From UHGV virus genome UHGV-0105900: 10,850 bases of DNA; one strand, 5' to 3'. This DNA comes from a virus. Shown in pieces: positions 1 through 10,800 of this stretch (positions are counted from its first letter, which is position 1; each line of letters opens with the position of its first letter). The notes beneath the pieces are model-generated. The model did not search any database. It was not told the origin of the DNA and was given only the letters and a program-made list of their open reading frames with translations. Position numbers and translations under genes: made by a program.

Positions 1-7
1 TACCAGA

Positions 8-43
8 TGTGTACCAAACCATTATTTCTGAGCGTACCAAATA
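8..43 (+). repeat. Two copies of a G(T/C)GTACCAAA motif (8-18 TGTGTACCAAA; 32-43 GCGTACCAAATA) immediately upstream of int; candidate integrase arm-type binding sites / left att region
   Basis: The same two motifs recur at 9300-9310 and 9313-9324 just after the last island gene; spacing differs (13 bp vs 2 bp). Confidence 0.45.
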
Positions 44-49
44 TTATTT

Positions 50-1228
50 ATGGCTATAAGCGACACAAAACTGCGTACTATTTATGGTAAACCATATTCG
101 GGCCCACAAGAAGTGGCTGATGCCGATGGCCTCAGCGTACGAATTTCACCAAAGGGAGTCATCCAGTTCCAGTACCGCTATCGCTGGCATGGCAAGCCTA
201 ATCGACTTGGTCTTGGTCGATACCCATCCCTGTCTTTGAAGGATGCCAGACAGATCACTGCTGACTTGCGAAAGCTCTATTTCTCAGGAACGGATCCACG
301 CACCTATTTTGAAGAGAAGGTGGAGAACTCCATGACGGTCGCCCAGTGTCTCGACTACTGGTTCGACAACTACGTCTCTACAACTCTCAGAGAAAAGACC
401 CAGGCACTTTACCGATCAACGGTTATGAAGCGCATGCATGACGCCTTCCCTAATCGTCCAGCATCTTCTATTACGGTTAAGCAATGGGTTGACCTGCTTA
501 CCGAAGAAGAAAAAGATAATCCACGCCGAGCAAGGCAGGTGCTAAGTCAACTAAGATCAGCAATTAGTTGGTGCATGCGGCGTCAGTTGATAGATAGTTG
601 CGCAATTATGAGCATCCAGCCAAGGGACTTCGGCTCCCGCGCTGAGGTAGGGGATCGGGTGCTGTCGTATCACGAACTGGCTAAGATTTGGCTTGCTATT
701 GAAAGAAGCCGTGCGTCTACGTCAAATAAGCTCCTTCATCAGATGCTTATGCTGTGGGGGGCGAGGCTCTCAGAGCTTAGGCTGGCAAAAAAGACAGAAT
801 TTGACCTGCTGGAAAACGTATGGACCGTACCGAAAGAGCATAGCAAGATGGGTAATGTTATCCGCCGTCCAATCTTCGAACAAATTAAGCCTTTTCTCGA
901 AAAGGCCATGACAACGTACAATGATGTTCTTTTCCCTGGAGAAGACATAAACAAACCGATCAGCATCGCTGCAGCCAACCGATTCGTAAATAGAATAAGG
1001 GGAGGGATGGATCTAGGTTACTGGCGAACACATGATTTCAGAAGAACGCTTGTTACACGTCTGTCCGAGATGAATGTCGAGCCTCATGTTACTGAGCGAA
1101 TGCTCGGTCATGAACTTGGCGGGATAATGTCCGTATACAATAAACACGATTGGATAGAGGCTCAGCGCAAAGCGTATGAGCTTCACGCTGATAAATTGTT
1201 CTGGCACATCAGGAGCATTTCTGATTAA
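50..1228 (+). CDS. int: Tyrosine recombinase / integrase, P4 (IntA) family
   Basis: 392 aa; N-terminal arm-binding-type motif (GLSVRISPKGVIQFQYRYRWHGK...LGLGRYPSLSLKDARQ) typical of P4-like integrases; C-terminal catalytic region with HDFRRT and LGH...Y motifs (R-H-R-Y tyrosine recombinase signature). Confidence 0.9.
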   Translation: MAISDTKLRTIYGKPYSGPQEVADADGLSVRISPKGVIQFQYRYRWHGKPNRLGLGRYPSLSLKDARQITADLRKLYFSGTDPRTYFEEKVENSMTVAQCLDYWFDNYVSTTLREKTQALYRSTVMKRMHDAFPNRPASSITVKQWVDLLTEEEKDNPRRARQVLSQLRSAISWCMRRQLIDSCAIMSIQPRDFGSRAEVGDRVLSYHELAKIWLAIERSRASTSNKLLHQMLMLWGARLSELRLAKKTEFDLLENVWTVPKEHSKMGNVIRRPIFEQIKPFLEKAMTTYNDVLFPGEDINKPISIAAANRFVNRIRGGMDLGYWRTHDFRRTLVTRLSEMNVEPHVTERMLGHELGGIMSVYNKHDWIEAQRKAYELHADKLFWHIRSISD

Positions 1229-1400
1229 CACCACCGTTAAGAATCCACCCCTCAACAGCTTCACGAAGGTATGATTTGGGGTGGGTTCTGACTGGCTTCG
1301 GAAATCCGTGCCGTTTGGTATAGTTCCAGATTGTCTGACGTGATGAAACACCGAGCTTGTTCATCACTTCTTTCTCAGGAATCAGGCTGGTATCGGTCAT
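1209..1400 (-). CDS. AlpA/Xis-family excisionase or transcriptional regulator (HTH_17-like)
   Basis: 63 aa; EKEVMNKLGVSSRQTIWNYTKRHGFPKPV...W matches the AlpA/Vis/TorI-type pattern; GGAGA Shine-Dalgarno upstream; 3' end overlaps int 3' end convergently by 20 nt. Confidence 0.7.
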   Translation of the reverse strand: MTDTSLIPEKEVMNKLGVSSRQTIWNYTKRHGFPKPVRTHPKSYLREAVEGWILNGGVNQKCS

Positions 1401-1415
1401 CTTAATTCTCCAGGC

Positions 1416-1438
1416 AAAAAGAAACCGCCATCAGGCGG
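1416..1438 (-). terminator. Intrinsic terminator (minus strand): CCGCC-ATCA-GGCGG hairpin followed by a U-run
   Basis: Plus-strand A-run 1416-1424 then 5-bp GC stem 1425-1429/1434-1438; on the minus strand this is hairpin plus TTTCTTTTT. Sits just upstream of the xis start. Confidence 0.5.
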
Positions 1439-1598
1439 CTTGGTGTTCTTTCAGTTCTTCAATTCGAATATTGGTTACGTCTGCATGCGCTATCTGCGCC
1501 CATATCATCCAGTGGTTATAGCAGTCGTTGATGCCCTCTGCTTCGATAACTCTGTTGAATGGTTCTCCATTCCATTCACCTGTGACTCGGAAGTGCAT
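1431..1598 (-). CDS. Hypothetical small protein (55 aa)
   Basis: ATG at 1598 preceded by GGAGA; MHFRVTGEWNGEPFNRVIEAEGINDCYNHWMIWAQIAHADVTNIRIEELKEHQAA; below the ORF-track size cutoff; stop codon lies in the loop of the downstream terminator hairpin. Confidence 0.35.
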   Translation of the reverse strand: MHFRVTGEWNGEPFNRVIEAEGINDCYNHWMIWAQIAHADVTNIRIEELKEHQAA

Positions 1599-1610
1599 TT
1601 ATCATCTCCA

Positions 1611-1636
1611 TAAAACAAAACTCGCCGTAGCGAGTT
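1611..1636 (-). terminator. Intrinsic terminator (minus strand), first of a tandem pair
   Basis: 7-bp stem 1619-1625/1630-1636 (core CTCGC/GCGAG, loop CGTA) preceded on the plus strand by A-run 1611-1620, i.e. hairpin then UUUUGUUUU on the minus strand. Confidence 0.55.
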
Positions 1637-1640
1637 CAGA

Positions 1641-1667
1641 TAAAAGAAAACCCGCACTCGGCGGGTT
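1641..1667 (-). terminator. Intrinsic terminator (minus strand), second of a tandem pair; likely end of the PL transcript
   Basis: 7-bp stem 1649-1655/1661-1667 (core CCCGC/GCGGG, loop ACTCG) preceded on the plus strand by A-run 1641-1650, i.e. hairpin then UUUUCUUUU on the minus strand. Confidence 0.6.
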
Positions 1668-1687
1668 CGCATTCGTTCAAATTGCGT

Positions 1688-1786
1688 TTACTTCTTGGCG
1701 TTCTGTTCATCCATATCGATATACCATGGGTTGCTTCCCTTGGGCATGTTTAACGACTGCTCGCGATAGTATCTGATGCGCTCCAT
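1688..1786 (-). CDS. Small ORF (32 aa) with weak recalled resemblance to the C-terminal part of lambda CIII; possibly a remnant
   Basis: MERIRYYREQSLNMPKGSNPWYIDMDEQNAKK; KGSNPWY resembles the KNGSNTYGY region recalled for lambda CIII; position (PL-distal, just before the terminators) matches cIII in lambda. Confidence 0.2.
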   Translation of the reverse strand: MERIRYYREQSLNMPKGSNPWYIDMDEQNAKK

Positions 1787-1946
1787 GAAATACTCGCGTG
1801 AGTGCTCAGGTTGCTCTCATGATACCTGCTCAGTGATAACAGGTATGTTAAGGCGCTCTCTGTACTCCATGCCTGATGCTGCAAGGTCAACGTTTACCTT
1901 GTTCTGTTTTTCTTTCGATTTCTCGGCGATGTTATGCCTGACATTG

Positions 1947-2231
1947 TCAACCCGCCTCCTTCTGAACATAACGGTTATAAATCAGTCCCTGAGGGCCATA
2001 AGGAAGCGGGATGTGCAACTCCTCTGGTTCAGAAACTATCCATTCTCCGGCCATCTCCGCTGGAGAGGTAATGATAAGTTGTTTGCTAATAAAAGGACCA
2101 CTCCTCTCAACAACAAGCTTACCATCTTCATTAATAAAAGCTTGGATGTCAGGTGTGCTTCCACACTTGGTGATGCAGCGTTTGAACATTTTGTGTCCCC
2201 CCATTTTATGTACGGGGTAATTATAACACAT
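1947..2231 (-). CDS. Hypothetical protein, possible Ral-like (restriction alleviation) protein; true start may be the internal ATG at 2189
   Basis: Contains FKRCITKC...INEDGKLV, which resembles recalled lambda Ral (FKRCNGCK...MEDGKYV); lies in the PL operon where lambda has ral; G-rich SD-like run precedes the ATG at 2189. Confidence 0.4.
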   Translation of the reverse strand: MCYNYPVHKMGGHKMFKRCITKCGSTPDIQAFINEDGKLVVERSGPFISKQLIITSPAEMAGEWIVSEPEELHIPLPYGPQGLIYNRYVQKEAG

Positions 2232-2315
2232 TGAAATATAGTAATATTTGACGTAGATTTCTTTTGATCTATAAGCGATTTTTTAATGCTTTTAAGTTAT
2301 AAATACTTGTTTTCA

Positions 2316-2642
2316 TCACCCATCTTGCTGCGGTGCTACTATTGAAAAGTGCTCACACCCTTTAGCCCAAATAGTTTTGATAGTTGTCCAACTGACTGGA
2401 ACCTTGATTTCGATTCTCCCGCTACAGTCACAAGTTTCGCAATCATCATCACCAAAGCATTCCGGGCAGCTTATAAACGTAGTTTCTGAAAATTCACCGG
2501 ATAGCACACCCTTAGCGCCGTTCTCGGCTGTTAGTCTCTTCGGCACCATGACCCAACCATCCGGAATTACCGGAGAGTTGCCGGGTTCTTTAATGTGCAA
2601 GCGAGGCTCACCATCTTTTGGCTCAGGCCACTGGCGCTCCAT
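2316..2642 (-). CDS. Hypothetical Cys-rich protein (108 aa) occupying the N-gene slot immediately downstream of PL
   Basis: ATG at 2642 about 75 nt downstream of the PL start; CPECFGDDDCETCDCSG cluster suggests metal binding; not N-like (no arginine-rich motif). Confidence 0.5.
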   Translation of the reverse strand: MERQWPEPKDGEPRLHIKEPGNSPVIPDGWVMVPKRLTAENGAKGVLSGEFSETTFISCPECFGDDDCETCDCSGRIEIKVPVSWTTIKTIWAKGCEHFSIVAPQQDG

Positions 2643-2658
2643 GTTGATCTTCAATTTA

Positions 2659-2684
2659 TCTTCAGGGCTTAATTTTTAAGAGCC
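2659..2684 (-). promoter_or_regulatory. nutL remnant: boxA-like GGCTCTTAAAAATTAA and truncated boxB (GCCCTGAAGA, lacking the closing AGGGC)
   Basis: Minus-strand leader ATCAGCAGGACGCACTGACCACCATGAAGGTGAGGCTCTTAAAAATTAAGCCCTGAAGA closely matches the recalled lambda PL leader, then diverges inside boxB. Confidence 0.6.
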
Positions 2685-2716
2685 TCACCTTCATGGTGGT
2701 CAGTGCGTCCTGCTGA

Positions 2717-2796
2717 TGGCTTAAAATTACAAGAAAGATTGTATGTTGTAAACAAGAAATATTGTAAAAAGGGGCGTGAAAAACAAACTCCATTGT
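2717..2796 (-). promoter_or_regulatory. PL promoter with three 434-type operators OL1 (2729-2742), OL2 (2752-2765), OL3 (2783-2796)
   Basis: 14-mers ACAAGAAAGATTGT, ACAAGAAATATTGT, ACAAACTCCATTGT (ACAA-N6-TTGT); minus-strand -35 TTTACA (2747-2752), 17-bp spacer, -10 TAATTT (2724-2729), start near 2717. Confidence 0.8.
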
Positions 2797-2845
2797 TTTT
2801 AAATGAAAAATAGTTTGTTTTTGGTTATCGAGATTGAGGTGGGGA

Positions 2846-4198
<1,353 letters not shown>

Positions 4199-4206
4199 GA
4201 CATTCC

Positions 4207-4238
4207 CGCTCTTACACATCCCAGCCCTGAAAAAGGGC
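4207..4238 (+). promoter_or_regulatory. nutR (boxA CGCTCTTACACATCCCA, boxB GCCCTGAAAAAGGGC), followed by a lambda tR1-like region up to the cII start
   Basis: boxB is a perfect GCCCT-GAAAA-AGGGC hairpin at 4224-4238; sequence from here to the cII ATG matches the recalled lambda nutR-tR1-cII leader. Confidence 0.8.
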
Positions 4239-4317
4239 ATCAAATTAAACCACACCTATGGTGTATGCATTTATTTGCATACATTCAATCAATTGTTATC
4301 TAAGGAAATACTTACAT

Positions 4318-4596
4318 ATGCAACTTACAAGTACTCGCAAGAAAGCGAATGCAATTACAAGCAACATCCTGAATCGAATTGCTGTACGTGGTCAGCGAAA
4401 GGTTGCCGACGCGTTAGGGGTTAATGAATCGCAAATTTCGCGATGGAAAGACAGCTTCATCCCCAAAATGGGAATGCTTCTGGCTGTTCTTGAATGGGGT
4501 GTTGAAGACGAGGAGTTGGCGGAACTGGCTAAGCAAGTAGCCAGAATGCTGACAAAAGAAAAAGCCCCGAAGAACGGCGAATTCTTCGAGGCCTGA
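4318..4596 (+). CDS. cII: CII-like transcriptional activator (lambdoid, diverged from lambda CII)
   Basis: 92 aa; SQISRWK...IPK..MLLAVLEWGV core shared with recalled lambda CII; AAGGA SD; start is the internal ATG of track ORF 4258-4596. Confidence 0.85.
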   Translation: MQLTSTRKKANAITSNILNRIAVRGQRKVADALGVNESQISRWKDSFIPKMGMLLAVLEWGVEDEELAELAKQVARMLTKEKAPKNGEFFEA

Positions 4597-4630
4597 TGTA
4601 GAAAGACTGGATCAATCCACAGGAGTAATT

Positions 4631-4792
4631 ATGACAAAACGTCGTAAGAAATACCAGGAAAAAGAAGAGATTCGACACCCTGATTCACCTGAGGGATTAG
4701 TGGTAGCCGCAGCAAATAACAGGGCGTTCGCAGAACGCCTTGTTGGTGTTTACAGACTAGCCAAAGCAGGAGTGAAACATGGGCGTCGTTAA
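4631..4792 (+). CDS. Hypothetical basic small protein (53 aa); possible 5' remnant of the replication-initiator gene or an independent small gene
   Basis: Strong SD AGGAG 6 nt upstream of the ATG; MTKRRKKYQEKEEIRHPDSPEGLVVAAANNRAFAERLVGVYRLAKAGVKHGRR; 3' end overlaps the Q start by 14 nt; below the ORF-track cutoff. Confidence 0.45.
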   Translation: MTKRRKKYQEKEEIRHPDSPEGLVVAAANNRAFAERLVGVYRLAKAGVKHGRR

Positions 4793-5471
4793 GTTAGCTG
4801 ATTACAGGCCTCAACTGGAGGTCGTGGAGCATCGCGTGGCAGATAACGGGAGTTCGGGAAGCGTAGCTAAATTTCATTCGCCAAAAAGCCCGATGATGAG
4901 CGACTCACCACGGGCTACGGCTTCTGACTCTCTTTCCGGTACTGATGTGATGGCTGCTATGGGGATGGCGCAATCACAAGCCGGATTCGGTATGGCTGCA
5001 TTCTGTGGTAAGCACGAACTCAGCCAGAACGACAAACAAAAGGCTATCAACTATCTGATGCAATTTGCACACAAGGTATCGGGGAAATACCGTGGTGTGG
5101 CAAAGATCGAAGGAAATACTAAGGCAAAGGTACTGCAAGTGCTCGCAACATTCGCTTATGCGGATTATTGCCGTAGTGCCGCGACGCCGGGGGCAAGATG
5201 CAGAGATTGCCACGGTACAGGCCGTGTGGTTGATATAGCAAAAACAGAGCAGTGGGGGAGAGTTGTTGAGAAAGAGTGCGGAAGATGCAAAGGTGTCGGC
5301 TATTCAAGGATGCCAGCAAGCGCCGCATATCGCGCTGTAACGATGCTAATTCCAAACCTCACCCAACCCACCTGGTCACGCACTGTTAAGCCGCTGTATG
5401 ACGCTCTGGTGGTGCAATGCCACAAAGAAGAGTCAATCGCAGACAACATTTTGAACGCGGTCACACGTTAG
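4779..5471 (+). CDS. Q: Lambda-type Q late-gene antiterminator (with a different N-terminal ~26 aa)
   Basis: From SVAKFHSPKSPMMSDSPRATASD... to ...ESIADNILNAVTR nearly identical to recalled lambda Q, including the Cys-rich zinc region CRDCHGTGR...CGRCKG; AGGAG SD 6 nt before the ATG at 4779. Confidence 0.88.
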   Translation: MGVVKLADYRPQLEVVEHRVADNGSSGSVAKFHSPKSPMMSDSPRATASDSLSGTDVMAAMGMAQSQAGFGMAAFCGKHELSQNDKQKAINYLMQFAHKVSGKYRGVAKIEGNTKAKVLQVLATFAYADYCRSAATPGARCRDCHGTGRVVDIAKTEQWGRVVEKECGRCKGVGYSRMPASAAYRAVTMLIPNLTQPTWSRTVKPLYDALVVQCHKEESIADNILNAVTR

Positions 5472-5513
5472 CAGCATGATTGCCACGGATGGCAACATAT
5501 TAACGGCATAATA

Positions 5514-5542
5514 TTGACTTTTTGAATAAAGTTGGGTAAATT
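5514..5542 (+). promoter_or_regulatory. PR'-like late promoter (-35 TTGACT 5514-5519, 17-bp spacer, -10 TAAATT 5537-5542) with Q-utilisation region
   Basis: ATATTGACT...GTTGGGTAAATTTGAC closely matches the recalled lambda PR' sequence directly downstream of Q. Confidence 0.75.
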
Positions 5543-5577
5543 TGACATCAACGATGGATAAATGCACTCGTTAAATA

Positions 5578-5614
5578 AAGCCCTGAGTTAATAGCTCTGG
5601 GCTTTTTGCGTTTT
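5578..5614 (+). terminator. tR'-like intrinsic terminator ending a ~60-nt PR' leader RNA
   Basis: Stem 5577-5587/5595-5605 (one T-T mismatch, 7-nt loop) followed by TTTTTGCGTTTT. Confidence 0.7.
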
Positions 5615-5887
5615 AAGCACGGCCTTTCTGAAAGCACATCAAACCAAATACCAGACAGACAATACCCTCACCTTATAGGGACACTTGCTTCAACAGGAGG
5701 GACGGTTAGGACCGCCATCCTATATGGGACGACCGCCAATAGAACCACGGCCACGGTAATAGAACTCTTCAGAGATGGCACAGTCGCTGCCGGGCATACT
5801 TTTACGCTGAGAGATATTTCTTTTGGAGACAGCAGGGCTCTAGGGGCTGATTTTGGAGGCTCCTTCGGGAATCTGTATAAGTTCTAA
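5579..5887 (+). pseudogene. Open frame without an ATG start, ending 1 nt before a GC hairpin; possible 3' remnant of a deleted late/structural gene
   Basis: Frame open from 5579 to TAA 5885-5887 with no internal ATG; Gly/Thr-rich C-terminal sequence; position corresponds to where a tail or tailspike gene abuts gtr in P22-like/Sf phages. Confidence 0.25.
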
Positions 5888-5888
5888 T

Positions 5889-5906
5889 CGGCCGCATCAG
5901 CGGCCG
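5889..5906. terminator. Perfect 7-bp GC hairpin (CGGCCGC-ATCA-GCGGCCG) between convergent units; probable terminator, possibly bidirectional
   Basis: Followed on the plus strand by TATCTCTTT; lies 8 nt downstream of the gtrC stop on the minus strand. Confidence 0.5.
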
Positions 5907-5913
5907 TATCTCT

Positions 5914-7515
5914 TTACAGATAAGCGACGAAATAGCCGTCAATTTTCTTTATTTTAAGTTTGTCGCCATAGATGGATAGGGGCTTCTTGAGCCATGTATC
6001 GTCTGTGGCGACATATATCTCATTATTCCTTAGCGTACCCTTAGCCTTAATTTCGGCTATATATCTTTTGTTATTATCTATCGCTGCTTTGTCTGCTCTA
6101 GCAAAATACCCAAAATTAAGTTTCATTTTTTCTGAAGAAGCAAATTCAGCAAATGGGAGCCAATGTCTTAAGCTGAACTCATCGTAATCAGTGGTTATGA
6201 TAGTGTCCTTCCCTTTGGAGATGACTTCCCACTCTTTACTCAACATTTGAGAGCTGTATGGCTTACCAGTATATATCTCTCGAACGGCTTTGAAAAAGTT
6301 GCTTTCATCCGCCACTGATATTAATAGAATAGGGAGCAAGACATAAGCAGAACTTTTCGAGGTTTTTGCTAAGTATGCCAAAACAATCAACATCAAGATC
6401 ATCGTCACCGGCCAGAAGAACCGACCAGAAGAGCGAAAAACGCCACCAACCTTCATGAGAAAGTCATTCATTGGAATTTCAATGAGATTAAATCCATAAA
6501 AGTTAATTCGATAAGTTATAGAAACGGCAGCCAGAACTAAACAGAAGTACAATACAGGAGATTTTATAATTCTCCTGAAATCTATGGACTTTCTTAAAGA
6601 GGAGTCTATCAGCATAAACAAAAATAGCGTGATGATGCCTAATCCTAGATAATTTATACCCTCAAAGTTAGCCTGTTGACTCCCATGACTCAAGATAAGA
6701 TGTGAGTATCTCTGGTCTCCTGGGTTGAACCAGCCGGCAAGATCCATGTTAAGGAATCCGAATCCAGGGTATGGGTCAGAGCCTTTAATAACAAAGTATC
6801 CGGTAGCATACATTGCGAGAAATATTAACACAGAGTAACACGCGAAAAAGAATGCCGATCTTTTTAAAGATAAACGGTTTGTGTTCAGTTTGTTTAAAAT
6901 GTCAAATGCAAAAATTAAATACACCATTATCAGCAAATATGCATGAATGGTGACTGAGAGAACTAAAATAGCAGCCCATCTTTTAAAGCAAAAAGACCTA
7001 TTGATATAAAGGTAAAATCCAAAAAGAATTAGCCACTGAGCGCCTAATGCAAAGTGACCACCGGCACGATTTAAGAATATTGGTGCAATGCAGAAGAAGC
7101 ATGAACCTATTGCAGAGAATATCTCATCCTTTGTTAACTTACGAAGAACCAAATACGCAGAAAACGTCATAAGCACAAAGCAAAGATACATCCAAAGCCC
7201 GTGATATTGAAATCTGGCGGGGAGAAAGTCGCTAAAAGGCTTGAATATGAAGGCCATAATTGGGATTGAGTCGGTGTAAACGATAGACCCACCTACACCC
7301 ATCCCATAGTTATAATTTAGGCCAAGGGGCCACTGCAACAACGGAGTATTTCGGAAGAAATTCCATCCTGACCAGCTTTGACCAGGATCACCTATCATAA
7401 GCCATCCAACTCTTTTGAAGTCCAGCACATTCACACCAACATACATAGCAAACATTGATGTCGTGAATATAAACATAAATAAGGACGCTAAAATCCTTTT
7501 TTGTGCCTTAGTCAT
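5914..7515 (-). CDS. gtrC: Serotype-specific O-antigen glucosyltransferase (GtrC-type, polytopic membrane protein)
   Basis: 533 aa, many hydrophobic segments, AT-rich codon usage; third gene of a gtrA-gtrB operon with an 8-nt overlap to gtrB; type specificity cannot be assigned from sequence alone. Confidence 0.8.
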
Positions 7516-8431
7516 TGTGTTTATTCCTTAAGATGTAACGAGGCCTAGCCTTGACTTCAATATATATTCTTCCGATATATTCACCAAGAACGCCAATGCC
7601 GATAAGTTGAATCCCGCCCAAGAACAGGATTGAAACAAGGAGTGAAGGATATCCTCTCACGGCATTTCCAAATGCAATAGTATCGATGATCATCCAGGCT
7701 CCGTAGATAAATGCAAGCCCAGCGACTAGTAATCCAATATAAGTCCACATACGTAGAGGGAATGTAGAAAAGCTAGTAATCCCTTCTAGAGCTAAATTCC
7801 AAAGCTTCCAGCCATTAAACTTTGTGCAACCAGCGACTCGCTCAGCTCTGGCGTATTCTACTACATCTGTTTTCCCGCCAACCCAAGACAAAACGCCCTT
7901 CATGAACAAGTTTCTTTCTGGCATTAGTTTGATATTTTCTACCACTTCTCGTGACATTAAACGGAAGTCACCGACGTTCTCTTCAATTTTGGGATTGCTG
8001 ATTTTATTGTGTAGCTTATAGAACCACTCAGCTGATTTTCGCTTTAAACGACCGTCAGTAGACCTGTCTGTACGTTTGGCCAGAACCATATCCGCCCCAG
8101 CCTGCCACTTCTCAATTAGGTGGGGGATTACTTCAATTGGGTCCTGCAGATCTACATCAATCGGAATGACCGCGTCGCCTGTAGCTTGGTCAAGGCCAGC
8201 AAACAAAGCCGGTTCCTTTCCGAAGTTACGCGTGAAGGAGAGAGGAACTACGAGTGGGTCAGCAATGGCAAGCGCGTTAATAATTGATTCTGTAGCGTCT
8301 TTGCTACCGTCGTTAATGAAGACTATTTCGACTTCATGCTGCTGAAGCCCTTCAAATTCCCGCACGGTTTTATAGAAGATTGGAATTGCTTCCTCTTCAT
8401 TAAACACAGGAACGACCAGAGAAATTTTCAT
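7508..8431 (-). CDS. gtrB: Bactoprenol (undecaprenyl-phosphate) glucosyltransferase GtrB (GT2 family)
   Basis: 307 aa; N-terminal GT2 motifs ([22 protein letters not shown]) plus two C-terminal transmembrane segments; ATGA overlap with the gtrA stop; AGGGA SD. Confidence 0.93.
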
Positions 8432-8790
8432 TTCACATCCCTAAAGACAATGAACTTTGAATAAATAAACCCGCACACCAGACTGATGGCGGAGAACAGA
8501 ATTAAGGTGATGATTGGTGCCAGACCAGATTTATCCGCCGCCCAACCCACAGCTGCGCTAAGCGTCCCCATAAAGCCGACGTAAAGCATGTATCGCATGG
8601 TTGTTGTGGATGACTTAAACGTGAATCTGGCATTTGCGAAGAAGCTAAATGACACAGCCACAACGAACCCGGCAAAGTTGCCAAGGGCCTGTCCTGTATG
8701 GAATGCATAGATGCAAATTGCGAACACTACCCAGTGAATGAGCGTGTTAATGACACCTATCGATGTGTACTTGGCGAATAACTTTAACAT
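8428..8790 (-). CDS. gtrA: Bactoprenol-linked glucose translocase (flippase) GtrA
   Basis: 120 aa from [23 protein letters not shown]..., matching recalled GtrA; the track ORF extends to a GTG at 8853 but the ATG at 8790 matches the homologue N-terminus. Confidence 0.88.
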
Positions 8791-8866
8791 TATAGAAATC
8801 AGTGAATTCGGAAAGGTCTGAAGTGTAGCACCACAAACGCTATTGATCGACACCGCCGATCAGTAC

Positions 8867-8886
8867 TACTGTATTAATATACAGTA
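8867..8886. promoter_or_regulatory. LexA (SOS) box TACTGTATTAATATACAGTA overlapping a candidate extended -10 (TGtATTAAT) for the downstream plus-strand gene
   Basis: CTGT-N8-ACAG palindrome, 19 of 20 matches to the consensus TACTGTATATATATACAGTA; 17 nt upstream of the humD-like start; lies in the 113-bp divergent region shared with gtrA. Confidence 0.85.
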
Positions 8887-8903
8887 ACTATCGGAGGTGA
8901 GTT

Positions 8904-9290
8904 ATGGGATTCCCGAGTCCGGCTCAAGACTATGTTGAAGAGCGCGTATTGCTCGACAAGCGCATCATAAGCAGACCAGCGGCCACGTATTTCATGAGAG
9001 CGGGTGCAACGCATCACCGCGAAGGCATCCTGAATGGTGCTCTTCTGGTAGTGGATGCATCGCTATCACCATGTGACGGCTCGTTGCTGGTTTGCAGAAT
9101 GGAAGGTGAGCTGAGGATTAAGCGATATCGCAAATCACCAAAGCCTCACCTGGAGGATTTGCAGACGGGAAGGCGTGAGGAGATACCGGCACACGATGAC
9201 GGCACGAGTCCGGATGCGATATTTGGTGTGATCACCTACATCATAAACGATGCACGCTCTGGCGAGTTTGATGATTGTCTGATTATGTGA
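8904..9290 (+). CDS. UmuD'-like (HumD-like) SOS mutagenesis accessory protein; S24-fold, naturally lacking the N-terminal arm, catalytic Ser position occupied by Thr
   Basis: 128 aa; starts M-GFPSPAQDYVEERV..., aligning with UmuD from Gly25 (the residue after the Cys24-Gly25 autocleavage site); aligned GDSM is GATH here, Lys of the dyad retained (RIKRY); GGAGG SD; in-frame stop at 8898-8900 directly upstream; no umuC follows. Confidence 0.8.
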   Translation: MGFPSPAQDYVEERVLLDKRIISRPAATYFMRAGATHHREGILNGALLVVDASLSPCDGSLLVCRMEGELRIKRYRKSPKPHLEDLQTGRREEIPAHDDGTSPDAIFGVITYIINDARSGEFDDCLIM

Positions 9291-9299
9291 AAATTTCGT

Positions 9300-9324
9300 T
9301 GTGTACCAAATTGCGTACCAAATA
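9300..9324 (+). repeat. Right-end copies of the GTACCAAA motifs (TGTGTACCAAA 9300-9310; GCGTACCAAATA 9313-9324); candidate integrase binding sites / right att region
   Basis: Exact 11-bp and 12-bp matches to the motifs at 8-18 and 32-43; located 10 nt after the last island gene and before host-like DNA. Confidence 0.45.
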
Positions 9325-9633
9325 AAAGTGTGATGAGAGAGATGGCTTTAATCACGCGGGTTTCGTGGCTGCTGCGCGTAATCGTGAAACAAAAAGGTAG
9401 ATTGTTGCTTACCGTCATTCATCATTAGGTTAAATCCGTTATTTCTGCTGTCTGCCAGAGTATCAAATATCACCGTGCTAATCAGCTTTAGCGCGACAAT
9501 TTGGCAGCGAGTGGCAACAGATCATGTCAGATAAAAATGAGGTAGTAGTCACATTTTCTTGCACTTTATTCCAGCCAGTTCATAAGTATTTCCGTAAAAA
9601 GAACAGCTATTTGAAACACCTGAGGGTTTGCTG

Positions 9634-10800
9634 TTGAAACGCCGTCTTATTATTGCTGCTTCTTTGTTCGTTTTTAATTTATCGTCTGGTTTTGCGGCGG
9701 AAAACATTCCTTTTTCACCTCAGCCTCCAGAGATTCATGCCGGGTCCTGGGTATTGATGGATTACACCACCGGTCAGATTCTCACCGCGGGTAATGAGCA
9801 TCAACAGCGCAATCCCGCCAGCCTGACAAAGCTGATGACGGGCTATGTCGTGGATCGCGCTATCGATAGTCATCGCATTACGCCAGACGATATTGTCACC
9901 GTGGGGCGTGATGCGTGGGCGAAAGATAATCCGGTGTTTGTCGGTTCTTCACTGATGTTTTTGAAAGAGGGCGATCGCGTATCGGTACGTGATTTAAGCC
10001 GAGGTTTAATTGTGGATTCCGGAAATGACGCGTGTGTTGCTCTGGCTGACTATATTGCCGGTGGGCAACGGCAGTTTGTTGAAATGATGAACAACTATGC
10101 CGAGAAGCTGCATCTCAAGGATACGCATTTTGAAACAGTGCATGGTCTGGATGCACCTGGCCAGCATAGCTCGGCTTATGATTTAGCCGTGCTTTCTCGC
10201 GCTATCATCCACGGCGAGCCCGAGTTTTATCATATGTACAGTGAGAAAAGCCTCACCTGGAACGGTATCACCCAGCAAAACCGTAACGGGTTATTGTGGG
10301 ATAAGACCATGAATGTTGACGGCCTGAAAACGGGCCATACTTCTGGTGCCGGGTTTAATCTTATTGCTTCGGCTGTAGACGGGCAGCGTCGCCTCATTGC
10401 AGTGGTAATGGGTGCTGACAGCGCAAAAGGTCGTGAGGAAGAGGCAAAAAAATTACTGCGTTGGGGGCAACAAAACTTTACTACGGTGCAAATTTTGCAC
10501 CGTAGGAAAAAGGTCGGTACGGAACGCATCTGGTATGGTGATAAAGAAAATATCGCCCTGGGAACGGAACAAGAGTTCTGGATGGTGCTACCGAAAGCCG
10601 AAATTCCACATATCAAAGCCAAATATACCCTTAATGGTAAAGAGCTCACCGCGCCAATTAGCGCCCATCAGCGGGTAGGGGAAATTGAACTTTACGACCG
10701 TGATAAACAGGTGGCGCACTGGCCGCTGGTTACCCTGGAATCTGTCGGGGAAGGCAGCATGTTTTCTCGCCTGAGTGATTATTTCCACCATAAGGCCTGA
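9634..10800 (+). CDS. dacD: D-alanyl-D-alanine carboxypeptidase, PBP5/6 family (PBP6b-like)
   Basis: Signal peptide, SxxK (SLTK), SxN (SGND) and KTG (KTGHT) motifs; sequence matches recalled E. coli DacD; probable TTG start at 9634 (388 aa) after GAGGG SD, alternative TTG at 9628. Confidence 0.88.
   Translation: MKRRLIIAASLFVFNLSSGFAAENIPFSPQPPEIHAGSWVLMDYTTGQILTAGNEHQQRNPASLTKLMTGYVVDRAIDSHRITPDDIVTVGRDAWAKDNPVFVGSSLMFLKEGDRVSVRDLSRGLIVDSGNDACVALADYIAGGQRQFVEMMNNYAEKLHLKDTHFETVHGLDAPGQHSSAYDLAVLSRAIIHGEPEFYHMYSEKSLTWNGITQQNRNGLLWDKTMNVDGLKTGHTSGAGFNLIASAVDGQRRLIAVVMGADSAKGREEEAKKLLRWGQQNFTTVQILHRRKKVGTERIWYGDKENIALGTEQEFWMVLPKAEIPHIKAKYTLNGKELTAPISAHQRVGEIELYDRDKQVAHWPLVTLESVGEGSMFSRLSDYFHHKA

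Follow-up and report, generated by a model that had tools for sequence, protein, structure and literature searches.

Operons of the gtr type set the O-antigen serotype, the masking of phage receptors and recognition by antibodies, and whether a clone carries a phase-variable or a constitutive copy decides whether it can escape antibodies and phages by switching. In phage P22, transcription of gtr starts 25 base pairs (bp) upstream of the gtrA ATG, and the four GATC sites of the control region start at -110, -97, -46 and -33 relative to that position (Broadbent 2010, PMC2909390). The -35 element of the gtr promoter has been described as encompassing GATC-4 (Davies 2013, PMC3688519). A P22 region of 115 bp is sufficient for phase variation and one of 95 bp is not, so that losing the distal 20 bp abolishes switching. 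A construct with only the OxyR(BC) sites and the promoter is locked OFF at 9 Miller units, whereas one with OxyR(C) as the only site is intrinsically active at 349 Miller units (Broadbent 2010, PMC2909390). In the BTP1 prophage of S. Typhimurium ST313 strain D23580, the phase-variation signature of gtr is disrupted by a 365-nucleotide (nt) sequence, a gtr lacZ fusion gives uniformly Lac+ colonies without phase variation, and the start upstream of gtrA found by differential RNA sequencing is the same site as in gtrLT2_I (Kintz 2015, PMC4413052). Here, we analyzed a stretch of 10,850 nt from the UHGV virus genome UHGV-0105900 (hereafter, the window), a degraded lambdoid prophage of E. coli lying between sbcB and dacD, in which gtrA and humD diverge from a shared spacer. 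With this element, the BTP1-type gtr control region gains a new member in E. coli, and the small new point is that the disrupting sequence is a humD cassette with a LexA box, whose predicted promoter overlaps the gtr promoter (Pgtr).

The BTP1 spacer has the same length as that of the window, 113 bp, and 98 of the 113 bases are identical, including the whole LexA box and the GATC pair. The -10, the -35 and the leader of gtr are the same in both, a humD-type reading frame starts at the same distance, and the two regions are also alike in lying between tailspike or O-antigen-modification genes and attP/int. The gene contents differ: gtrB is deleted, gtrA truncated and GtrC an acetyltransferase in BTP1, whereas gtrABC is intact in the window; humD is a pseudogene in BTP1, whereas it is intact in the window, where it stands in an E. 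coli prophage remnant at sbcB/dacD. Judged from this comparison, the 365-nt sequence of BTP1 is a LexA-controlled humD cassette, a nature that does not appear to have been recognized before. The terms LexA, OxyR and GATC have no mention in Kintz 2015 (PMC4413052), LexA and umuD have none in the gtr papers checked, including Kintz 2015 and Davies 2013, and literature searches on gtrA with LexA or SOS and on humD with LexA found no link between gtr and LexA. In the BTP1 lysogen, gtrA and gtrC are among the few prophage genes above 100 transcripts per million (TPM) (Owen 2020). Because the BTP1 fusion is uniformly Lac+, its gtr genes exceed 100 TPM and the P22 construct with OxyR(C) alone is active, the gtr operon of the window is predicted to be of the constitutive, non-phase-variable BTP1 type.

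Layout of the 113-bp spacer and the remains of the Dam/OxyR switch

The original prediction had placed the gtrA start at 8790 (minus strand) and the humD start at 8904 (plus strand), with a gap of 113 bp holding a LexA box and two GATC sites, and it had read the gap as a shared divergent control region. All of these coordinates were confirmed by reading the sequence, which places the spacer at 8791-8903, the LexA box (TACTGTATTAATATACAGTA) at 8867-8886 and the GATC sites at 8845-8848 and 8858-8861. The box agrees with the LexA consensus at 18 of 20 positions, both mismatches falling in the central AT-rich spacer. It is the only 20-mer in the window within three mismatches of that consensus, and no such match arose in 200 dinucleotide shuffles, so the box is real. 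The core pattern CTGT-N8-ACAG likewise occurs once in the window, where 0.14 occurrences are expected. The score used here is the number of consensus positions matched. The two GATC sites form an inverted repeat, GATCG-N7-CGATC (8845-8861), found once in the window against an expectation of 0.01 and arising in one of 200 shuffles. GATC is otherwise depleted across the window (26 sites against 42 expected), and the adjacent pair therefore stands out. The distance stays at 113-114 bp across E. coli, Salmonella, Enterobacter, Citrobacter and a Candidatus Erwinia contig, including loci in which GtrA identity drops to 62%. The 113-bp region is a real divergent control region, and it is conserved in other loci. 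A consensus scan of 8400-9400 for promoters and terminators returned nothing within the spacer, with no promoter in either direction; this is uninformative, because the gtr promoter that was experimentally mapped in P22 is also missed by the scan.

On the gtrA side, the candidate promoter named in the original prediction (TCGATC, 17 bp, TACACT) is present on the minus strand and is homologous to the mapped promoter of P22, LT2_I and BTP1. Its -35, TCGATC (8850-8845), contains GATC4 and is followed by a 17-nt spacer (8844-8828) and an extended -10 (8822-8830) made up of TG (8830-8829), C and TACACT (8827-8822), which P22, BTP1 and the relatives from E. coli and Enterobacter share without change. 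Read in the orientation of gtrA, the window is near-identical to P22 over the ATG, the leader, the two promoter elements (-10 TGcTACACT and -35 TCGATC) and both GATC sites, and the homology ends beyond GATC3. By this homology, the gtrA side is a P22-type gtr promoter. Its transcription start is predicted near 8815, which would give a 5' untranslated region of ~25 nt (8791-8815, minus strand) near-identical to the P22 leader. No recognizable Shine-Dalgarno sequence was found in the leader (ttcactgatttctataATG), and the same holds for P22 and BTP1. A longer gtrA reading frame opening at GTG 8853 (141 amino acids) was rejected, as GtrA homologs have 120 residues and transcription in P22 begins 25 nt before the ATG.

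With +1 placed at 8815, the GATC sites of the window start at 8848 (-33) and 8861 (-46), 13 bp apart. They thus match the P22 positions of GATC4 (8845-8848) and GATC3 (8858-8861) exactly, within an OxyR(C)-type half-site (8845-8861) that agrees with the consensus at 6 of 10 positions by manual count, versus 8 of 10 in P22. OxyR(A) and GATC1/2 are absent; the positions equivalent to those of P22, 8909-8925, lie inside humD, and not one GATC occurs between 8862 and 9229. At the OxyR(B) site, P22 carries a perfect ATAGATAAAAACTAT, whereas the window has ATAGTTACTGTATAT, with 8 of 10 specified positions. This B-like sequence (ATATACAGTAACTAT, 8877-8891, an 8/10 match to ATAGnTnnnAnCTAT) overlaps the right half of the LexA box, to which 10 of its 15 bases belong, and it lies 31 bp from the C site, 1 bp closer than the 32 bp of the signature. 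Matches as good as this one are about as frequent in the window as chance would give (8 against 5.3 expected); the match was therefore given no weight as a meaningful site, and the B-like site is probably non-functional. The locus is like the switches of P22, gtrLT2_I and gtrPT4_II in its promoter, its 25-nt leader and its GATC3/GATC4 at -46/-33 in an OxyR(C)-type half-site, but it differs from them in lacking OxyR(A) and GATC1/2 and in having OxyR(B) replaced or overlapped by the LexA box. It is therefore predicted not to phase-vary.

The GATC sites are Dam targets in a context homologous to that of P22, with GATC4 lying in the -35 of both the gtr promoter and the predicted humD promoter. A link between Dam methylation and gtr expression, as had been suggested for this locus, holds insofar as the sites occupy the positions of GATC3 and GATC4 and one falls in a -35; it weakens in that the switch is truncated and the BTP1 equivalent is not phase-variable. 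A modest effect of Dam on gtr is plausible, and Broadbent 2010 (PMC2909390) suggested a possible direct effect of GATC4 methylation on the activity of the promoter. Epigenetic on/off switching of gtr by Dam appears unlikely, because OxyR(A) and GATC1/2 are missing and phase variation is not seen in the BTP1 region, which is 87% identical. That Dam/OxyR phase variation is retained despite the truncation would fit with GATC3, GATC4 and the -35 being intact and in exact register, but the P22 region loses switching once its distal 20 bp are removed (115 to 95 bp) and BTP1 does not vary, and we consider retention highly improbable.

The humD cassette and its predicted LexA operator

P1 HumD reportedly substitutes for UmuD' in SOS mutagenesis. 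The HumD protein of the window (128 amino acids, S24-like, encoded at 8904-9290 on the plus strand) matched the NCBIfam HumD equivalog NF051876 at 207.2 bits (cut-off 120), with residues 1-128 aligned to profile positions 1-129, and it is 83% identical to N15 gp26 and 70% identical to P1 HumD. Its residue 2 (GFPSPA) aligns with residue 1 of UmuD' (1umu), which is Gly25 of UmuD (8gmt). The position of the catalytic Ser60 of UmuD is occupied by His, and Lys97 is kept. Because the N-terminus corresponds to that of processed UmuD' and Ser60 is replaced by His, HumD is predicted to be a ready-made UmuD' analog, an accessory subunit of DNA polymerase V with no need for RecA-mediated self-cleavage.

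The SOS operator of the E. coli umuDC operon, TACTGTATATAAAAACAGTA, overlaps the umuD promoter. The window resembles umuDC in having a strong CTGT-N8-ACAG box near the start of a UmuD-type gene, but it differs in that no umuC follows and in that HumD lacks the 24-residue N-terminal tail and the catalytic serine. The humD promoter (PhumD) is predicted to consist of a -35, TTGATC (8843-8848, plus strand), with the conserved TTGAT and a GATC shared with the -35 of Pgtr, an 18-nt spacer and a -10, TACTGT (8867-8872), formed by the first six bases of the LexA operator (8867-8886), with a transcription start near 8879. Other -10 sequences within or after the LexA box (TATTAA, TAATAT, TACAGT, AACTAT) were rejected, as they have no plausible -35 at 16-18 bp and their positions are unconserved. 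The ribosome-binding region (GGAGGTGA, 8892-8903, plus strand) contains GGAGGTG, which is conserved among the aligned humD loci.

These assignments draw on 58 humD-related loci from species-representative genomes, together with phage and E. coli loci. Of the loci in which humD has an upstream region to itself, most carry a LexA box 14-20 bp before the humD ATG, and its position holds across upstream neighbors as different as gtrA, an acyltransferase-3 gene, an MBOAT/AlgX pair, a hypothetical gene and a co-directional gene with a terminator. An alignment of 18 humD upstream regions contained TTGAT(C), AATACTGTAT...ACAG, GGAGGTG and the ATG as its sole conserved blocks. TTGAT was invariant or nearly so in these 18 loci, which have at least six different upstream neighbors, and it stood 17-19 bp before TACTGT in all of them. 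The motif CTATCGG is part of the humD leader and occurs also in loci without gtr. Because the box accompanies humD whatever gene lies upstream, it is assigned to humD as its putative operator. A comparable arrangement exists in P1, whose GenBank record annotates one LexA site "in the regulatory region of lxr and humD", two divergent genes, and both P1 and N15 gene 26 have a LexA box 14-19 bp before the ATG of a humD-family gene. P1 differs in that the partner is lxr rather than an O-antigen-modification operon, in its 174-bp spacer, and in having no GATC pair or TTGATC at the same offset.

The distribution of matches to the window pointed to a composite structure. In about 89 records of P22-like and Shigella phages, the match to the window ends at 8865. 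For many E. coli loci with humD and without gtrA, it begins only at 8843, and for others only at 8857. Because P22-like matches end at 8865 and humD-only matches begin at 8843, the region reads as two modules that overlap at 8843-8865, the segment of the GATC pair. The whole junction was present in eight phage records (two Enterobacter phages and six BTP1-like Salmonella phages), and the full gtrA-humD junction was found in 14 of 5426 complete E. coli genomes.

In E. coli prophages at the dacD site (including loci L070, L071 and L073), the gene divergent from humD varies, and the GATC pair, the LexA box and humD are constant. Of the four loci fetched, three have a candidate surface-polysaccharide modifier opposite humD, and the fourth, L072, has a co-directional hypothetical gene instead. 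The set of genes seen opposite humD comprises gtrABC, an acyltransferase family gene, an MBOAT O-acyltransferase with an AlgX-related protein, and a hypothetical gene beside a polysaccharide deacetylase.

Two proposed back-to-back promoters and the SOS response

We propose, at a probability of about 0.6, that the 113 bp hold the back-to-back sigma-70 promoters of two separate accessory-gene modules, with gtr constitutive and humD repressed by LexA. In the leftward module, Pgtr would have kept only the promoter-proximal third of the switch, OxyR(C) with GATC3 and GATC4. With OxyR(A) and GATC1/2 gone, no bistable choice between OxyR(AB) and OxyR(BC) binding would be left, and the gtr operon would for that reason be constitutive in the lysogen, where both GATC sites are probably simply methylated. 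In the rightward module, LexA would cover the -10 and the start site of PhumD, so that humD would stay repressed until SOS induction, after which HumD would supply a pre-activated UmuD' analog to the host UmuC. LexA bound at -52 to -71 of Pgtr would not repress that promoter. The sequence elements, the homology to a mapped promoter, the constitutive expression of BTP1 gtr without phase variation and the HumD family come from data or the literature; the promoter of humD, the binding of LexA, the methylation of the GATC sites and a like behavior of the E. coli and BTP1 copies are inferred.

Several points weigh against this proposal. BTP1 differs from the window at 15 of 113 bases, including those just before the LexA box, and its humD is a pseudogene. 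The proposed humD -10, TACTGT, has only 3 of the 6 consensus bases, and no promoter was reported there by the consensus scan. The GATC pair, or at least GATC3, is kept by humD in loci without a gtr-type promoter (L071, L018, L026 and L072); these may be recent derivatives of a gtr-linked ancestor, or else the pair may have a role at the humD promoter, for example as a methylation-sensitive -35 or spacer. Lastly, BTP1 gtr expression falls 10-17-fold in a condition where an SOS marker rises 17-fold, which is unexpected for fully independent promoters.

The original prediction had suggested that LexA occupancy could influence O-antigen glucosylation. As direct repression, this was not borne out. 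The LexA box spans -52 to -71 of the homology-inferred gtr start and overlaps neither the -35, the -10 nor the start of Pgtr. Direct repression of gtr by LexA is unlikely, because the box lies upstream of the -35 and because BTP1 gtr is high in uninduced lysogens, in which the LexA box is expected to be occupied. One strong LexA box within a short spacer common to both genes would suit an operon whose O-antigen modification is SOS-induced, and P1 annotates one LexA site for its divergent lxr and humD. Nevertheless, besides the position of the box, the BTP1 equivalent gives uniformly Lac+ colonies and strong transcription without induction, and gtr falls rather than rises in the SOS-positive sample, so that such SOS-induced modification is extremely improbable.

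The expression values for D23580 were taken from Table S5 of Owen 2020, which gives a single TPM value per condition. Between InSPI2 and peroxide shock, BTP1 gtrA fell from 168 to 9.7 TPM and gtrC from 151 to 14 TPM, and the dinI homolog of Gifsy-2, a LexA-type SOS marker, rose from 39 to 677 TPM. BTP1 pid was nearly level (48 and 44 TPM), and other BTP1 genes fell only ~1.5-3-fold under peroxide shock (Owen 2020). NaCl shock pointed in the same direction relative to the MEP baseline, with dinI going from 109 to 443 and gtrA from 187 to 55. A 3-4-fold fall of BTP1 gtrA also occurred in low-iron and anaerobic shocks without a rise of dinI, and gtrA was low in stationary phase (Owen 2020). The peroxide data are a lead and not a test, because each condition has one TPM value, OxyR is oxidized by peroxide, gtrA drops also without a dinI rise and the comparison has no canonical gtr operon as control; the comparison is thus confounded.

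These values bear on an indirect coupling to SOS, in which LexA occupancy would favor gtr and cleavage of LexA would free PhumD for a polymerase that competes with Pgtr, so that the O-antigen glucosylation genes go down during SOS. The layout would allow it: TTGATC (plus strand, 8843-8848) and TCGATC (minus strand, 8850-8845) share the four bases of the GATC at 8845-8848, the predicted starts are ~64 bp apart, and the footprints of two polymerases would collide. The fall of gtrA and gtrC under peroxide as dinI rises, with pid unchanged and other BTP1 genes down only ~1.5-3-fold, agrees with such competition, as does the NaCl shock. It is opposed by the single value per condition, by the oxidation of OxyR and the global perturbation of mRNA levels under peroxide, by the falls of gtrA in low-iron and anaerobic shocks and its low level in stationary phase, and by the missing canonical gtr control. 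In addition, PhumD, whose start is a predicted one, looks weak, with its 3/6 -10, and may compete poorly. Competition of this kind is possible but on balance doubtful. A link between serotype conversion and SOS is possible and unproven; if it exists, it would be indirect and probably negative.

A second way in which LexA could help gtr was also weighed. LexA lying over the B-like site could exclude OxyR(BC)-type repression and so act as an anti-repressor that replaces the lost OxyR(A) function. The P22 constructs show what would be at stake (9 Miller units with OxyR(BC) and the promoter against 349 with OxyR(C) alone), an 8/10 B-like site stands at the homologous place with 10 bp overlapped by the LexA box, and BTP1 gtr falls on peroxide shock. 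However, the B-like site is 1 bp out of register, consists mostly of a LexA half-site and belongs to a class of matches found at chance frequency; its CTATCGG belongs to the humD leader even in loci without gtr; the C half-site is weaker than that of P22 (6/10 versus 8/10); and methylated GATC3/4 block OxyR binding in vitro (Broadbent 2010, PMC2909390). An anti-repressor role of LexA is accordingly very unlikely. The wider idea, that LexA occupancy is required for full gtr expression by keeping either polymerase off PhumD or OxyR off a residual BC site, is rather unlikely. If it held, O-antigen modification would shut down for a time after DNA damage, and a serotype-conversion operon would have come to use the SOS repressor as its ON factor in place of the lost OxyR(A); the acyltransferase and MBOAT O-antigen modifiers found opposite humD in other E. 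coli prophages would be wired alike.

Under the preferred reading of two separate modules, a sequence rule follows: a humD/LexA cassette abutting an OxyR(C) half-site would mark a constitutive BTP1-type operon, and the rule would reach prophages of E. coli, Enterobacter, Citrobacter and Salmonella. The layout raises the question of whether the overlap of the two divergent promoters lets SOS modulate O-antigen modification; failing that, the locus is simply a pair of adjacent accessory-gene modules.

Prophage setting and related loci

The prophage remnant carries an integrase gene (50-1228, plus strand), a gene for a cI-like helix-turn-helix/S24 repressor (3247-3879, minus strand) and the antiterminator gene Q (4779-5471, plus strand). 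Directly after Q follows gtrC, the lysis and structural genes being absent between them, and window positions 1-5900 are a prophage remnant. The gtrABC operon is encoded on the minus strand by gtrC (5914-7515; Pfam DUF6311), gtrB (7508-8431; Pfam Glycos_transf_2) and its first gene gtrA (8428-8790; 120 amino acids; Pfam GtrA_DPMS_TM, E 1.7e-14), whose ATG is the reverse complement of cat at 8788-8790. Beyond humD lies dacD (9628-10800, plus strand). The whole window was present in no genome of the collection searched. The best two genomes, PSS-10 and E308, contain 86-87% of the window at 100% identity and have differing internal deletions or insertion sequence (IS) insertions, and E. coli PSS-10 is 100% identical over the 1.4 kb surrounding the gtrA-humD gap.

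GtrA identity among related loci is 93-96%. GtrC is swapped among loci (the window compared with loci L002, L003 and L004), while gtrA, gtrB and the control region are conserved. The GtrC types include DUF6311 in the window, DUF6056 in PI6 and "glucosyltransferase domain" proteins elsewhere, and the swapping fits with serotype-specific exchange of GtrC.

The humD pseudogene of BTP1 (locus L067, 3501-3900) has an in-frame stop after ~40 codons and is unannotated; the BTP1 record annotates an antisense "hypothetical protein", STMMW_03931, over the same DNA, and the Canals 2019 supplement lists no plus-strand feature at the humD remnant. At the canonical gtrLT2_I locus of Salmonella D23580 (656640-656749), a divergent small RNA, STnc1870, is placed ~107 bp upstream of gtrAa by the annotation (Canals 2019 supplement), a position relative to gtrAa that approximates the position of humD in the window. 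A short humD remnant (residues ~73-124) adjoins dacD in E. coli strains without an intact humD in the current prophage (L004, L005). The same remnant occurs at the right end of the records of Stx-converting phages integrated at the dacD site (H63-H68), which label that end as sequence duplicated by phage insertion.

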